From an uncultured bacterium (GTDB lineage: Bacteria; Fermentibacterota; Fermentibacteria; Fermentibacterales; Fermentibacteraceae), in contig CAZRWD010000001.1 of NCBI GenBank assembly GCA_964603785.1, forward strand, positions 485,638 through 549,637: a stretch of 64,000 nt of DNA, in the 5' to 3' direction. The position numbers were made by a program, and so were the translations under genes. Each line of letters opens with the position of its first letter. The first letter of the stretch is position 1. The notes beneath the pieces were generated by a model, which did no database searches, had not been told where the DNA came from, and worked only from the letters and a program-made list of their open reading frames with translations. Of the stretch, positions 48,626 through 60,142 are shown one piece after another.

Positions 48626-49543
48626 GTGGTGGAGGTCACGCCCTCCTGCAATCTCTCGTGCCGCTTCTGCTGCAACCCCTGGCACATCTCCTCCGCCCCG
48701 CCCCGGCCGCGTCCCGGGCTCGCGAGCGAACTGGTGGCCTCCCTCGGGAGGCTCTCCCCTTCGGGCATCACCCTATCCGGAGGCGAGCCCCTCCTCCGCG
48801 ACGACCTCGCCGGGATCGTGCGGACGGCGCACGATGCCGCATCGCGAGTCATACTCGCAACGAACGGCACCCTCCTGACGCGGGATCTTGCCGTGCAGCT
48901 CGCGGATGCCGGCCTCGGAGGCTTCCAGATCACGATCCCCACGTGCGACGGGCTCCTGTTCGGGCGCCTCTGCGGAGCCGGGGATCCGGTCCCGGTCAGG
49001 AGCGCGATCGCATCCGCGGCATCCACGGGGCTCCCCGTCTCGGCGGGTTTCCCCGTCACATCAGCCAACTGGCGTGAGGCGGCGGCCGTCCTCAGGACGT
49101 CGGTCGCCTTCGGAGCCGGATCGTTCATGTTGCTGAGGCTCGCCTCCGGGGGCAGGGCTTCGAAACCGGGATTCGACCTGTTCCCCACCCCGGACCAGCT
49201 CGGGGCGGCCGCCATGGACGCCTGCGAGGCGGGAGCGGCCCTGGGGATAACCGTCTATGCCGGGATCACGATGGAGCAATGCTCCTTCGACCTGCCGCCC
49301 GGCATGGCGGACGAGGGCTGTACCGGAGCCGTTGTGAAGTGGGCCGTCGATCCCTGGGGAAGGCTGAGACCCTGCGAGCAGTCGCCGGTCATCCTGGGCG
49401 ATCTGCTGGAGGAGGGTTTCGAAACGCTGTCCGTCTGCGCCGGGGCCGAATCCTTCAGGCTCTGGCGGAGAGGCGGCGGGTGCGGCTCCTGCATGTCGGC
49501 GGAAGCCTGCCGGGGCGGCTGCAGGTATGTGCCTCAGGGCTAG
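48626..49543 (+). CDS. Radical SAM / SPASM-domain enzyme (peptide- or protein-modifying maturase family), start uncertain
   Basis: CNLSCRFCCNPW (CxxxCxxC) and GITLSGGEPLL (GGE motif). C-terminal Cys cluster CGSCMSAEACRGGC (SPASM). No ATG in frame near the N-terminus; GTG at 48626/48629 assumed. Confidence 0.8.
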   Translation: MVEVTPSCNLSCRFCCNPWHISSAPPRPRPGLASELVASLGRLSPSGITLSGGEPLLRDDLAGIVRTAHDAASRVILATNGTLLTRDLAVQLADAGLGGFQITIPTCDGLLFGRLCGAGDPVPVRSAIASAASTGLPVSAGFPVTSANWREAAAVLRTSVAFGAGSFMLLRLASGGRASKPGFDLFPTPDQLGAAAMDACEAGAALGITVYAGITMEQCSFDLPPGMADEGCTGAVVKWAVDPWGRLRPCEQSPVILGDLLEEGFETLSVCAGAESFRLWRRGGGCGSCMSAEACRGGCRYVPQG

Positions 49544-50205
49544 CCGAAGACCTCGCGCCGCCGATCCTCAAGGAAGGCCACGAGACCGTCGACGCCTTCG
49601 CCGGTGAGTGCGCTCGCCCGTATCACCGCCACATCCGCGTTCATGCTCCGGCATTCCTCCTCCGCGCGATCCATGTCGAAGGGGATGTGCGGCGCGAGGT
49701 CCACCTTGTTCAGGATCATGAGGTCGATCCGGCTGAAGAGCGACGGATACTTGAGGACCTTGTCGTCACCCTCCGGAAGAGACAGGATCCCCGCCCTGAG
49801 GTGCTCGCCGAGGTCGTAGGAGCTCGGGCAGATGAGGTTGCCGACGTTCTCGATCACGAGGAACCTGTGGCCTCCGGACGGCAGGTCCATCGAGGCCAGG
49901 GCCCTCCCGACCGAGACGGCATCCAGGTGGCACGCGCCGCCTGTCTCTATCTGGACGGCCTTGACCCCCGCGGCCTTCACCCTGTCGGCATCCCTGCTAG
50001 TCTTGACGTCACCCTCGACCACCGCGAGATCGTTCCCGAGCCTGCGGGCCAGGGCCTCCAGAAGAGTGGTCTTGCCCGCGCCTGGCGAGCTGATGACGTT
50101 GACTGCGAAGAGGCCCAGGCCGGCGAACACGTCCCTGTTCCTCGCGGCCGCCTCGTCGTTGGCCTGCATGACGCTCCGCCTGAGATCCACCCGTGTTCTC
50201 CTCAT
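49540..50205 (-). CDS. hypB: Hydrogenase nickel-incorporation GTPase HypB
   Basis: SSPGAGKTTLLE (P-loop), CHLDA metal-binding motif and NKVDL. Confidence 0.9.
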   Translation of the reverse strand: MRRTRVDLRRSVMQANDEAAARNRDVFAGLGLFAVNVISSPGAGKTTLLEALARRLGNDLAVVEGDVKTSRDADRVKAAGVKAVQIETGGACHLDAVSVGRALASMDLPSGGHRFLVIENVGNLICPSSYDLGEHLRAGILSLPEGDDKVLKYPSLFSRIDLMILNKVDLAPHIPFDMDRAEEECRSMNADVAVIRASALTGEGVDGLVAFLEDRRREVFG

Positions 50206-50717
50206 GCCTTCGATCCACCTCCGCGACAGGCCTCGCAGGTCCGGCCGGACCTCTCCTCCCCCATCTCCTCGAGCAGCAGGTCCACGATGACCGGCAGCGC
50301 CTCCTCGACCTCGGGGGAGAGCTTCTCCTCCAGCATCCTGGGGGGCCTCACGGTGACCCCCAGGATCTCCCAGTCGGGGAAGGATGAGGTCGCACGGAGT
50401 CTTTCGAGGGCGTGCATAACCGATCCTATGTCCGTCTGGTGGAATGACGGGGCGAACGCCCTCGGTGCGCTCCTTCCCCTGGTCACCATGCCCGGCGGCT
50501 CTCCCGCCACGGCGTCGACGAATATGAAGCGCCCGGCGGATCCGATCATGTCCGACACCGCCAGGAGGTCACCCTCCAGGGTGGTCAGGAGCACGCCGTC
50601 CGGCCCGGATCCGCCGAGCCTCTCTCTCAGCATCTCGACCGCCCGAACCCCGGCTCCGTCGTCTCCGGCGAGCGTGTTGCCGATGCCCACGATCGCCAGG
50701 CGGGCACGGGGGGGCAT
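50202..50717 (-). CDS. [NiFe] hydrogenase maturation endopeptidase (HycI/HyaD family)
   Basis: LAIVGIGNTLAGDDGAGVRAVEML N-terminus and the conserved FVDAV motif. ATGA overlap with hypB. Confidence 0.8.
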   Translation of the reverse strand: MPPRARLAIVGIGNTLAGDDGAGVRAVEMLRERLGGSGPDGVLLTTLEGDLLAVSDMIGSAGRFIFVDAVAGEPPGMVTRGRSAPRAFAPSFHQTDIGSVMHALERLRATSSFPDWEILGVTVRPPRMLEEKLSPEVEEALPVIVDLLLEEMGEERSGRTCEACRGGGSKA

Positions 50718-50718
50718 C

Positions 50719-58049: not shown

Positions 58050-58181
58050 GCGCACGGATCGGACCACCTCATGAACAAATAACACATAAACTCCATTCCA
58101 GTTCCCGAACAGGTTCCCGTGGCCCCCACGCTGCAGGGGGAACGGGATCCGCGGGGCTCCCCGGGATCCATCCCACCGGCA

Positions 58182-59001
58182 TCATTCGCGGTCGGCATCC
58201 GCACCCTGCCCCGGTTCGTCCTCCGCGACCTCGTACAGCACCCTGCACCTGTTGTGCGCGAGGAGCTCTGAGACCACCTCCTCCCCGCCCCCCCGGGCGG
58301 TCCGCCTCCAGATCCTGTTCTCCCGCATCATCGTCCCGTCGGGGTCCCGGAAGAACCTGTGGTCCGTCTCCTCGACGGTCACTTCGAAGCCGGGGTCACG
58401 GGGTGCCGATATCGAACCGGCAAGGACGGGGGGCTCGACGGATGCCCGTATGAGCAGGGGCATGTCGAGAGTGTTCCTCATCCTCATGTCCAGGTAGTTG
58501 TAGAAGACGCTCACCCCCATGCCGAAAGGAACGCGCCTGTTGCTGTCCGGGAAGAGGTCTACACCGTGCCTGTGGCGCTCGACTATCTCCATGCCGGCAT
58601 GCAGACCCATCCAGAGCAGCAGGTTGGCGAGCTGGCACAGCCCCCCTCCGACGGAGGCGATCATCCGCCCCTCCCGGAGTTCCAGACCGTCGACATACCC
58701 CAGGGATGGCACGGTCCTCCCGACGGTCCGGCAGAACGAGAACAGGCCTCCCGGCGGCACGACGAGCCGGTCGACCCTGGCCGCTGCCAGTTCCAGGTTC
58801 CTGATCTTCCCCAGCTGAAGGGAATCATCGGCTCCCGGGATGCTCCTCAGGAGCTGCGAGGAGTGCCTGACGACGACGAACGGATAGCTCTCAGCGTCCT
58901 CCGCCCTGCCCATCGCCGGTCTCTCGTCGAAGAGGTCCCGCGCATGCCGCAGAAGGCGCAGAATCGCAACCTTCGATCGGAAGGGGATGGCGAGGCTCAT
59001 C
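58182..59001 (-). CDS. VanW-family protein
   Basis: …IASVGGGLCQLANLLLWMGLHAGMEIVERHRH…FGMGVSVFYNYLD is a VanW core. Start at MSLAIPFRSK; the track ORF has a 222-codon Arg-rich upstream extension. Confidence 0.75.
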
Positions 59002-59053
59002 TCCCGATCGCTTCGCAAGGGGTGTGGTCGCCGCCCGGCGTGTCGATCCTTCC

Positions 59054-60142
59054 CTAGATGGTGTAGGAGAGGCCGAAGAGGAATTCGGTGGTCGAGTCGT
59101 CGACCCTGTCCGCATCCTCGAACGGCATGTAGTCGCCGTAGAGCTTGCGCGTGTGCCAGTGCATGGCAGCATCCAGCCTCACGGGTCCCATCCTGCGGGT
59201 CCCGCCCAGCGAGAATCCCATGCCCTCGCCGTTCTCGCCCGGCAGCTCGAGGAACGAGACGCTGGAGATGAGCACGGTCTTCGCATCTATGGGGTAGTTG
59301 ATGTGGATGCGCCCGGAGTAGTCGTTCCTGCCGAGGGGGGACGCGATCTGGCCCTCCAGCCCGACGGTGACGTTCTGCAGGTGGGGCGCTAGGATCTCCG
59401 CCCCGAAGGCGACCACCGGCTGCAGATGCTCCCCGCCGGCCGAGTAGCTGACGCCGAGGGTCGCGAGCCTGCTGCGCGAGATCGCGCCCACGTGCACGGC
59501 CGGCTCGGCGATGTCGTACTCCACGGCTGCCGAGGAGTCGACCACCGCGAGCCAGTTGTTCCACCTCTCGTAGTCGATCTCGACGAGTCCGAACCGGTAT
59601 CCCGCCGACACCCCGAGCGAGACCCATCCGGCGAGTGCGTAGGATGCTCCCGCAAGGGCCTCCCACTGAGCTCCGGAGGCGACGAGGGTCTCGACCGCCT
59701 CGATCTCCTCGGTGGTCTCGTTGTAGACCAGGCGGCCGCCCTCGTAGGAGGCGTCGGCCACCGCGGCCAGCCCGGCACCGATCGAGACGGACGGCGAGAG
59801 GCGGGAGGAAAGGGCGATGTTCCTCATGCCGAGGACCTGATCAGACTTGTAGTCTCGCTGGACCGAGTATCTGCGGACCTCCTTCCAGTAGAGCGAGCCG
59901 ATCGACCCGGCCACGCTCGTGCCGTCGACGAGGGAGAGCCCCGCAGGGTTCATGAAGAGGGCCAGGGCGTCCGAGGCGCTCGTCGAGACCGAGCCGCCCT
60001 GGGATGCGGACACAACACCGATCCCCGATAGTACCGCCCCTCCGTCCATCGCCTGCTTGTAGCCGTTGGCGCTGGAGGCGGACGGGAGGATCAGCAGAAT
60101 GAGAACGGCGGTGAAGACCGGGAATGCACGAGGTGACATCAT
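59054..60142 (-). CDS. Outer-membrane beta-barrel protein (putative porin/FadL-like)
   Basis: Signal peptide MMSPRAFPVFTAVLILLILPSASSANG. Alternating amphipathic beta-strand pattern ending …FLFGLSYTI. Confidence 0.6.
   Translation of the reverse strand: MMSPRAFPVFTAVLILLILPSASSANGYKQAMDGGAVLSGIGVVSASQGGSVSTSASDALALFMNPAGLSLVDGTSVAGSIGSLYWKEVRRYSVQRDYKSDQVLGMRNIALSSRLSPSVSIGAGLAAVADASYEGGRLVYNETTEEIEAVETLVASGAQWEALAGASYALAGWVSLGVSAGYRFGLVEIDYERWNNWLAVVDSSAAVEYDIAEPAVHVGAISRSRLATLGVSYSAGGEHLQPVVAFGAEILAPHLQNVTVGLEGQIASPLGRNDYSGRIHINYPIDAKTVLISSVSFLELPGENGEGMGFSLGGTRRMGPVRLDAAMHWHTRKLYGDYMPFEDADRVDDSTTEFLFGLSYTI

Follow-up and report, generated by a model that had tools for sequence, protein, structure and literature searches.

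A conserved cluster of Roadblock, V4R-fold and [NiFe]-hydrogenase genes in a relative of Candidatus Fermentibacter

Gene content of the locus

We analysed a stretch of 64,000 nucleotides from contig CAZRWD010000001.1 (hereafter the window), which, judged by its sequence, belongs to a relative of Candidatus Fermentibacter (Fermentibacteria, formerly Hyd24-12) and has a GC content of about 65-70% over most of its length. GC3-guided analysis of open reading frames (ORFs) revealed a block of 13 genes, all of them co-directional on the minus strand and running from 60142 down to 49540 (Table 1), and the gene calls on identical metagenome contigs (L001-L004) agreed independently with these 13 genes. 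The block encodes a [NiFe]-hydrogenase with its maturation proteins, two proteins of predicted V4R/Bet3 fold, three Roadblock domains, the small Ras-like GTPase MglA and an AAA+ ATPase. Genes G3 to G13 (58049 to 49540) make up one conserved functional cluster, outside which lie G1 and the VanW gene G2, and the linkage of Roadblock, V4R-like and hydrogenase genes in it is real, conserved and above chance. The pairing probably represents a single, hitherto undescribed system in which hydrogen or redox chemistry is connected to a switch of the GTPase type.

An earlier sequence-only reading of this DNA had described an uninterrupted series of 13 genes with short or overlapping junctions, and we find all of them in place, the junctions ranging from a 20-bp overlap to a 132-bp gap. 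That reading had also considered that a terminator between 54301 and 54345 might divide the block; no terminator was predicted there. Moreover, a search of the minus strand from 49000 to 60800 gave no terminator-like site, and folding of the three longest gaps did not exceed that of shuffled sequence (z = +0.18, +1.65 and +0.98), with no stable hairpin. The longest and most AT-rich gap of the block is the one that follows G2. A divergent DUF6982 gene borders the block on one side and a convergent radical-SAM gene on the other.

The small subunit of the hydrogenase (HydS, G9) bears no Tat signal and has VhuG as its best NCBIfam model (224 bits, cut-off 450), while the large subunit (HydL, G10) is best matched by VhuA (266 bits, cut-off 800), HoxH being the precomputed family on L001. 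The best PDB matches of G10 were 7t2r_D (288 bits), MvhA 5odc (269 bits) and 5xf9 (251 bits), and its nearest solved relatives are the large subunit of NiFe-HydABCSL, MvhA and an NAD-reducing hydrogenase; its similarity to 7t2r_D, MvhA and HoxH is about equal. On these best NCBIfam and PDB matches we regard the enzyme as cytoplasmic and group-3-like (3c/3d-like). Its large subunit continues for about 27 residues after the motif DPCLACATH, that is, it carries a C-terminal extension. We detected no diaphorase, Hdr or other acceptor module among the families found in the cluster, and no FlpD (MvhD), CCG or HdrA family in the block; the lack of an acceptor module is unusual for a purely metabolic group-3 enzyme. 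Published descriptions of Fermentibacter genomes mention cytosolic hydrogenases in generic terms only.

Immediately before the small-subunit gene, in the position that mvhD holds in hydrogenase operons, lies the V4R-like gene G8. The G8 protein has no match in Pfam even at E values of up to 10, and neither G8 nor the C-terminus of G11 attains a gathering-level match to V4R (PF02830). Structure prediction, by contrast, points to a V4R/Bet3/H-NOX fold for both. Foldseek searches with the AF2 model of G8 (pLDDT 82.8) returned TRAPPC3/Bet3, the V4R domains of PoxR, MopR and DmpR, BcsD and H-NOX as top matches, the PDB entries 6aq3, 5fru, 1wc9 and 7b6d being matched with a probability of 1.0 and TM values of 0.45-0.53. 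The AF2 model of G11 has a pLDDT of 69 overall, with block means mostly of 70-91 in the C-terminal domain (residues ~130-240), for which Foldseek gave H-NOX, Bet3, DmpR and MopR (3sj5, 2j3w, 6iy8 and 5kbe). In addition, among 22 relatives of G8, 10 had V4R as their best Pfam family below the threshold (best E 0.055), which made it the commonest such family; distant relatives found with the G8 profile carry the NCBI name V4R-domain protein, and one of these, P0262, is a Fer4+V4R fusion in which V4R is matched at E 1e-4 (22.8 bits, cut-off 31). Thus, the term V4R proteins used in the sequence-only reading holds at the level of the fold, by predicted structure and sub-threshold hits, but not at the Pfam V4R threshold, which neither gene reaches. 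Since the C-terminal domain of G11 aligns with the G8 family over 127 columns with the cysteines in register (hhalign E 5e-4), the two are paralogues. Three cysteines are invariant in G8 (C106, C124 and C156) and four in the C-terminal domain of G11 (C182, C188, C200 and C231). A weak ATC_hydrolase match of the G11 C-terminus, which recurs faintly in relatives, was rejected as a clue to function and probably reflects a shared fold. The longer matches of the G8 profile are Fer4+V4R fusions, TCAD9+V4R-like fusions or unannotated proteins; one of them, P0278 (722 aa), combines a TCAD9 (ternary-complex-associated) domain with a C-terminal G8-like V4R domain and connects the V4R fold with conflict or signalling systems that are built on NTPases.

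Five genes, G3 to G7, precede the V4R-like gene within the conserved cluster. G3 is the hydrogenase-linked Roadblock orthologue, as proteins orthologous to it (50-80% identity) adjoin V4R-hydrogenase clusters across phyla. G4 matches NCBIfam MglB at E 2.6e-21, under the equivalog cut-off, and its overlap with mglA means that a Roadblock-type MglB partner is encoded beside MglA. By its alignment to Thermus MglA (E 1.6e-58 over residues 3-188), in which it displays the P-loop GPGMSGKT (GPGxSGKT), the switch-I arginine stretch ERERTLFFDF and YTIPGQ (TxPGQ) where other GTPases have DxxGQ, G5 qualifies as a bona fide MglA; it is a single-domain protein and, unlike the Rag GTPases, has no C-terminal Roadblock domain of its own. 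In G6 the PATAN match spans residues 4-102 (Pfam cut-off 25), and the C-terminal 120 residues align with the G3 family (hhalign probability 99%, E 3e-18), which gives the block its third Roadblock domain. G7 combines its ATPase domain with an acidic/Pro-rich linker and a helical C-terminus; it matches NCBIfam DnaA at E 2.8e-41 with a score far under the DnaA and Hda cut-offs, and its AAA+ motif set is complete (Walker A GQGKT, Walker B IDD, SRL and NVRQL).

Table 1. The 13 genes of the block, with the distance from each gene to the next one downstream
Gene	Product	Coordinates	Strand	Support	Junction to next gene
G1	Secreted protein, 362 aa, putative outer-membrane protein	59054..60142	-	Signal-peptide-like N-terminus	35 or 53 bp
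G2	VanW-domain protein	58182..59018	-	Pfam VanW, 113.7 bits	132 bp; 96 bp if the start is GTG at 58085
G3	Roadblock/LC7 protein, 137 aa	57636..58049	-	Pfam Robl_LC7 (PF03259), 64.4 bits, cut-off 23	83 bp
G4	MglB-like Roadblock protein, 167 aa	57049..57552	-	Pfam Robl_LC7, 40.2 bits, cut-off 23	20-bp overlap
G5	MglA, small Ras-like GTPase, 193 aa	56487..57068	-	Pfam small GTPase; similarity to solved Thermus thermophilus MglA (3t12)	40 bp
G6	PATAN (PatA_N/DUF4388) protein with C-terminal Roadblock domain, 232 aa	55748..56446	-	Pfam DUF4388 (PF14332), 58.2 bits	2 bp
G7	DnaA/Hda-type AAA+ ATPase, 466 aa	54345..55745	-	Pfam Bac_DnaA, 75 bits	43 bp (GTG 54301) or 52 bp (ATG 54292)
G8	Free-standing protein of predicted V4R/Bet3 fold, 167 aa	53789..54292	-	AF2 model and Foldseek	4-bp overlap
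G9	[NiFe]-hydrogenase small subunit (HydS), 305 aa, MvhG/VhuG-like	52875..53792	-	Pfam Oxidored_q6	36 bp
G10	[NiFe]-hydrogenase large subunit (HydL), 465 aa	51441..52838	-	Pfam NiFeSe_Hases	4-bp overlap
G11	2x[4Fe-4S] ferredoxin domain fused to second V4R-like domain, 241 aa	50719..51444	-	Fer4 family matches	1 bp
G12	Hydrogenase maturation endopeptidase, 171 aa	50202..50717	-	NCBIfam TIGR00072, 76.3 bits, cut-off 47.45	4-bp overlap
G13	HypB nickel-insertion GTPase, 221 aa	49540..50205	-	Pfam cobW/HypB/UreG, 72 bits	

Conservation of the Roadblock-V4R-hydrogenase linkage

The conservation of the block was assessed in two directions. For the forward test, the G8 alignment was scanned against one genome per GTDB species, which yielded 69 loci from Fermentibacteria, Acidobacteriota (Thermoanaerobaculia, Bryobacterales and Holophaga), Fibrobacterota/Chitinispirillaceae, Eisenbacteria and Methylomirabilota as well as from Desulfuromonadales/Geobacter and other delta-proteobacteria; counts were taken over the 51 of these loci whose sequence reached 4 kb or more upstream. 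The core order V4R-like-HydS-HydL-FerV4R-protease was present in essentially every locus whose contig was long enough, with the protease conserved downstream of the G11 gene in nearly all of them and HypB variable in position. Roadblock genes stood nearby in 46/51 loci, and in most loci outside the Fermentibacteria a co-directional Roadblock gene immediately preceded the V4R-like gene. Over the 69 independent loci, the 4 kb preceding the V4R-like genes contained 6.2 Robl/PatAN ORFs per 10 kb and a downstream control window 0.15 per 10 kb, a 41-fold upstream enrichment. For the reverse test, G3-type Roadblock proteins were aligned and the alignment was scanned against metagenomes, which gave 80 loci: V4R-like/hydrogenase genes followed 23 of the 28 G3 orthologues that had at least 1.5 kb of downstream sequence, as against none of 15 lower-scoring Roadblock paralogues. 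Co-occurrence of V4R and Roadblock/MglA genes in other genomes, which the sequence-only reading had proposed beforehand as a check, was therefore seen from both sides. Moreover, pairwise distances between the Roadblock proteins correlate with those of the V4R-like, HydL and ferredoxin-V4R proteins (r about 0.75-0.83), as is consistent with inheritance or transfer as a unit.

The remaining genes proved less constant. A PATAN gene, with or without a Roadblock domain, was found in 41/51 loci and MglA in 23/51, and the AAA+ gene in 19/51, every one of them in Fermentibacteria or unclassified metagenome-assembled genomes (MAGs); weaker-matching AAA+ relatives occupy the same position on the unclassified metagenome contigs L113, L121 and L123. 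Hence, of the MglA-roadblock-AAA+ module that the sequence-only reading had treated as a unit, the Roadblock component is conserved but the GTPase and the ATPase are not: G7 is a lineage-restricted accessory and MglA an accessory rather than an invariant partner. The invariant core consists of the hydrogenase, the V4R pair and the Roadblock protein, not of the GTPase. The two genes at the head of the block, which the same reading had counted into it, fall outside the conserved set altogether as lineage-specific neighbours, since none of the 69 V4R-selected loci contains a homologue of VanW, and G1, which has no Pfam match, has homologues in only two of them (L005 and L006), close relatives in which it lies not upstream of the V4R-like gene but downstream, at distances of about 8.8 kb and 7.5 kb respectively.

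The Roadblock genes themselves are permuted between lineages; many loci have the order Rb2-MglA-PATAN-(AAA+)-Rb1-V4R-HydS-HydL, and in the lineage of the window Rb1 is shifted to the front of the Roadblock genes. Four loci, three of which are labelled Sabulitectum, lack a Roadblock module within 8-10 kb, and three contigs (L091, L092 and L113) carry a G3-type Roadblock gene and MglA module without a hydrogenase on the contig. At the Candidatus Sabulitectum locus L157:4392-9794, hypF-hypC-hypD-hypE replaces the Roadblock/MglA module upstream, and a divergently transcribed gene there encodes a bona fide V4R protein (Pfam XylR_N/V4R, 214 aa). Two contigs, L009 and L024, contain two partial copies of the Roadblock module each, one of them (Robl-(Robl2)-MglA) immediately in front of the V4R-like gene and the other (Robl-Robl2-PATAN-AAA+) about 8 kb upstream. 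A second, divergently oriented PATAN gene upstream of PATAN-Robl-V4R-hydrogenase is conserved in L074 (6432-8483), where an ATPase of the ParA/MinD type (a positioning-type protein) comes after it, and in many Acidobacteriota. The metagenome loci L108, L121 and L123 form a more divergent sister lineage with lower V4R, HydS and HydL scores against the hidden Markov models and with Fer and V4R as separate ORFs; they keep the Robl association, L121 having also Robl2-MglA-PATAN-AAA+ and L123 only PATAN-AAA+ upstream. Neither the window nor most of the other loci have a sigma-54 promoter in front of the V4R-like gene. In L049 a perfect match to the sigma-54 type, TGGCACAACAGTTGCA, lies about 200 nt upstream of the V4R-like start and in L036 a match with one mismatch about 176 nt upstream; both are loci with divergent Roadblock genes.

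The core also exists outside the lineages named so far. An exhaustive search with the G8 profile found only 63 representative clusters among 1.84 billion proteins, and the gene neighbourhoods of three distant members extend the pairing, which spans about seven bacterial phyla and two archaeal lineages. An Omnitrophota MAG has the order Robl-Robl-V4R-like-HydS-HydL-Fer-V4R-like-HycI, the second V4R-like domain being encoded, as in the Hydrothermarchaeota locus, by a gene separate from the ferredoxin gene. Methanobacterium sp. MBAC-LM (CP187261.1, L159:6955-12571) has Fer-Fer-V4R-like-HydS-HydL followed by a gene for a 462-aa protein that consists of an N-terminal Roadblock domain, a long acidic linker and a C-terminal domain; relatives are present in genome records of M. 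paludis, M. alcaliphilum and others. The MBAC-LM V4R-like protein shares 37% identity with G8 and retains all three cysteines, and the MBAC-LM HydL is closest to MvhA. A Roadblock-V4R fusion was sought but none was found, the C-terminal domain of the 462-aa protein having no detectable similarity to V4R. The MBAC-LM cluster resembles an additional Mvh-like hydrogenase, so far uncharacterised, in a genus of methanogens that has cultured members. In a Hydrothermarchaeota MAG (L162:7422-16474) the order is V4R-like-V4R-like-HydS-HydL-Fer-(167-aa gene)-Roadblock, and the Roadblock protein aligns with the G3 family at an hhalign probability of 99.5%; the 167-aa gene between Fer and Roadblock has a faint DUF2226 match. 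This cluster stands back to back with a canonical HdrACB-MvhD-MvhG-MvhA cluster, which shows that the V4R-type enzyme is a distinct paralogous system and not a mis-annotated Mvh. In the two archaeal loci and the Omnitrophota locus, gene calling gave no member of a GTPase Pfam family. Thus, Roadblock is the sole non-hydrogenase partner common to bacterial and archaeal clusters, and MglA, PATAN and AAA+ are bacterial or lineage-specific additions.

These distributions bear on two rival explanations. One is that the MglA polarity module and the hydrogenase are operons with no relation to each other that abut by chance in this genome; the 43-52 bp gap between G7 and G8 could hold an internal promoter, and the order of the Roadblock genes does vary between lineages. 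Linkage detected from both sides over so many phyla, the local enrichment and the absence of a terminator are at odds with it, and we regard this explanation as very improbable and largely refuted by the comparative data. The other takes the G3-type Roadblock protein for a dedicated assembly or maturation chaperone of this hydrogenase type, with MglA and PATAN merely as frequent neighbours, which would account for Roadblock being the only non-hydrogenase partner kept in both domains and for its gene lying now before, now after the structural genes, which is common for accessory genes. We nevertheless think that such a chaperone has little chance of being the right answer, given the frequency of PATAN-Roadblock and MglB/MglA genes at these loci, the three contigs on which a G3-type Roadblock gene and MglA module occur without a hydrogenase, and the fact that, to our knowledge, no hydrogenase chaperone of the Roadblock fold is known.

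Proposed coupling of hydrogen or redox state to a Roadblock/PATAN/MglA switch

What remains is a hydrogenase that lacks an acceptor module and all of whose conserved partners have folds from families of sensors or regulators (V4R/H-NOX, Roadblock, PATAN and MglA), and on both grounds we favour a signalling role. V4R, Bet3 and H-NOX folds are sensor or ligand-binding folds (PMC10933270), and the association of PATAN with MglA/MglB is already known: both are polarity or motility regulators and are encoded together (PMC4316618, citing Makarova et al. 2006). We therefore infer, tentatively and at somewhat less than even confidence, that the block encodes an Mvh-like hydrogenase whose V4R pair and Roadblock protein couple the hydrogen or redox state to a Roadblock/PATAN/MglA switch. 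HydS, HydL, the maturation protease and HypB would be its enzymatic heart, the paralogous V4R-fold proteins G8 and G11 its accessory subunits, and its partners the Roadblock protein G3, together with G6 in most bacteria, G4 and G5 in many and G7 in Fermentibacteria. Oxidation of hydrogen or reduction of protons at the Ni-Fe site would pass electrons via the clusters of HydS to the ferredoxin domain of G11, and the V4R-like pair, that is, the C-terminus of G11 and G8 arranged as a Bet3-style dimer, would read the redox state or a bound ligand. This pair would then dock the Roadblock dimers of G3 and of the C-terminal domain of G6; where present, the MglB-like G4 would set the nucleotide state or the location of MglA, so that hydrogen or redox status would bias the MglA/PATAN output. 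The physical contacts, the direction in which information would flow and the output are the conjectural parts of this scheme.

Type-IV-pilus polarity is a plausible example of such an output, since PATAN, MglA and MglB are polarity regulators and Fermentibacter has type IV pili but no flagella (PMC5030696); a preprint reports that PATAN regulators act on the type IV pilus motor (10.1101/2021.06.11.447907). In its most specific form, the proposal would make the hydrogenase a cytoplasmic sensor of hydrogen or redox state from which a Bet3/V4R heterodimer and Roadblock dimers relay to MglA/PATAN and so steer pilus polarity, and in this form we consider it speculative and rather unlikely.

A number of observations weigh against the coupling that we favour. 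The C-terminal extension of G10, the protease of its own and HypB resemble catalytic enzymes and not hydrogen sensors of group 2b. Since MglA is missing from a majority of the loci (28/51) and gene calling found no GTPase-family gene in the archaeal loci, the GTPase cannot be the universal output. In the Sabulitectum locus examined (L157/L031), the core lies between hypFCDE and hypAB with no Roadblock module inside 10 kb, so the enzyme can stand alone genomically. In Acidobacteriota a gap of 140-160 bp separates Robl from the V4R-like gene, and a sigma-54-type promoter precedes the V4R-like gene in L049, L036 and possibly L031 only, which together indicate that co-transcription is not general. 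By analogy with PoxR, finally, the sites formed by three and four cysteines may be merely structural Zn sites; a Cys-based Zn site is shared by V4R and Thor-TRAPPC3 (PMC10933270).

Some of these points suit an explanation in which control runs in the opposite direction. Here the hydrogenase would be catalytic, the V4R pair would replace MvhD as electron-transfer component or adaptor, and Roadblock, PATAN and MglA would position, scaffold or switch the enzyme, which would be their target, for instance at a pole or a membrane site, and not a sensor; the acceptor could possibly be a ligand in the V4R cavity. The location of G8 at the mvhD position and the affinity of archaeal HydL to MvhA agree with this, as do the signs of a fully matured enzyme (protease, HypB and C-terminal extension) and the Sabulitectum core, which has a complete hyp set and no signalling genes nearby. 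G8 is also as conserved as a core subunit would be expected to be, with a mean identity of 65% compared with 60% for HydL, and the four invariant cysteines of G11 could hold a further metal centre. However, the cluster encodes no acceptor module, V4R, H-NOX and Roadblock are sensor or regulatory folds and not redox carriers where they have been studied, G8 retains only three universally conserved cysteines, and the neighbouring genes all encode signalling or polarity proteins. We thus hold this reversed arrangement, the main rival, to be somewhat unlikely, and retain the coupling of hydrogen or redox state to the switch as the preferred explanation.

Hydrogen is the central currency of anaerobic communities, and beyond the kinase-linked sensors of group 2b little is known of how cells perceive it or arrange themselves around it. 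Should the coupling be physical, Roadblock and V4R proteins would gain a concrete partner in prokaryotes, there would be a way to test whether hydrogen or redox state controls polarity or pilus motility in fermenters and syntrophs, and Bet3-fold and Roadblock-fold proteins would be seen to work together outside eukaryotes; such a coupling would be unexpected to specialists in hydrogenases or in bacterial small GTPases. If the hydrogenase is indeed a sensor, the cluster would provide a molecular basis for hydrogen-directed behaviour in non-flagellated anaerobes, the first prokaryotic case of Bet3-fold and Roadblock-fold proteins acting jointly on a small GTPase, and a GTPase-free core common to Bacteria and Archaea. 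Experiments may be feasible, as the core is present in Methanobacterium (M. alcaliphilum, M. paludis and MBAC-LM), a genus with cultured members.

Relation to known systems and neighbouring features

Of the characterised hydrogenases, the Mvh/Vhu (3c) and 3d enzymes are the most similar. HydS and HydL are closest to VhuG/VhuA, MvhA, the NiFe-HydABCSL large subunit and HoxH, the enzymes share a cytoplasmic location, the C-terminal extension and the maturation protease, and the order X-G-A mirrors mvhD-G-A. The present cluster differs in that X is a V4R/Bet3-fold protein, that it has no MvhD (FlpD), Hdr or diaphorase, that a ferredoxin-V4R fusion follows the large subunit, that it is linked to Roadblock, PATAN and MglA, and that its scores remain far below the NCBIfam equivalog cut-offs. 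With the group 2b enzymes (HoxBC-HoxJ and HupUV-HupT) it shares the idea of a [NiFe]-hydrogenase that is encoded together with a signal-transduction partner and would feed it, and the cluster has no metabolic acceptor module. However, the partner here is Roadblock/PATAN/MglA with no histidine kinase in the block, the sequence affinity is to group 3 and not to group 2, and, whereas group 2b sensor hydrogenases, as far as is known, lack a C-terminal extension of the large subunit and a protease, the block has both the extension and the protease gene G12. In the literature that could be searched, which is incomplete, we found no description of Roadblock, MglB, LC7, PATAN or V4R linked to a hydrogenase, and the cluster is apparently an undescribed group-3 [NiFe]-hydrogenase architecture with V4R-fold subunits and a cross-domain Roadblock partner.

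On the regulatory side, G5 is a close homologue of MglA and the MglB-like G4 overlaps its gene, as expected of the MglA/MglB(/MglC) switch of Myxococcus and Thermus, from which the block differs by two further Roadblock domains (G3 and the C-terminus of G6), the DnaA-type AAA+ protein and the link to a hydrogenase. No response-regulator receiver of the RomR type, nor any family beyond those named here, appeared among the 13 genes in Pfam scans, which included no search aimed at RomX-like genes. The conservons of Streptomyces (CvnA-D: sensor kinase, Roadblock, DUF742 and MglA-like GTPase) resemble the block as signalling cassettes of Roadblock and an MglA-like GTPase with a sensor component (PMC4316618), but there is neither a histidine kinase nor a DUF742 protein among the 13 genes, the MglA is group-1-like and not of the CvnD type, and the candidate sensor is a hydrogenase with V4R-like subunits. 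The V4R domains of XylR, DmpR, PoxR and MopR and the H-NOX proteins share the predicted fold and a role, proposed for the present proteins, in sensing a state or ligand to control a partner; unlike the former, the window proteins are not fused to a sigma-54 AAA+ activator but are free-standing or fused to ferredoxin, and no haem- or phenol-binding residues were established in them.

The sequence-only reading had gone further and suggested an ancestral-type GTPase regulatory system akin to those of eukaryotes, which, put as an explanation of the block, would make V4R and Roadblock proteins a TRAPP/Ragulator-like guanine-nucleotide exchange factor (GEF) platform for MglA, with the hydrogenase as passenger or input. 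The fold families are indeed the same: G8 and G11 match TRAPPC3/Bet3, three Roadblock domains and MglA are encoded in one block, and their co-occurrence is conserved. However, TRAPP contains longin-type subunits (Bet5/Trs23/Trs20), of which there is none among the 13 genes, Roadblock domains being the only ones present, and there is no Rag-type GTPase with a C-terminal Roadblock domain. The folds match bacterial V4R sensors and H-NOX equally well, and the GTPase is dispensable in most clusters. The V4R proteins are instead tied to a redox enzyme; because their genes overlap hydrogenase genes by 4 bp and one of them takes the mvhD position, they are to be read first as hydrogenase subunits and not as a GEF. 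Furthermore, the main V4R-like family is 55-80% identical across phyla, which fits lateral spread of the cluster rather than deep ancestry of an eukaryote-like system, and the G8 family is tiny. In Asgard archaea, GTPase genes are reported generally not to share operons with Roadblock or TRAPPC3 genes (PMC10933270), unlike the clustered families described here. Eukaryote-like GEF ancestry is thus unsupported, and a GEF platform as such appears improbable.

Outside the block, the divergent DUF6982 gene (60180-60677, plus strand) lies directly upstream and is kept there in the identical metagenome contigs; a gene for a TonB-dependent receptor (61020-63338, plus strand) comes after it. An Rfam scan of the whole window gave a thiamine pyrophosphate (TPP) riboswitch as its sole match (RF00059, 68.4 bits; 14104-14194, plus strand), at the 5' end of an ORF of 474 aa (14118-15542, plus strand) and away from the block. 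Finally, the region from about 24000 to 34000 has a markedly lower GC content (55-62%, compared with 65-70% elsewhere). Among its ORFs are large ones that carry FG-GAP repeats or a FlgD Ig-like domain and several that have no Pfam match, and the region may have been acquired laterally as a set of genes for secreted or surface proteins.

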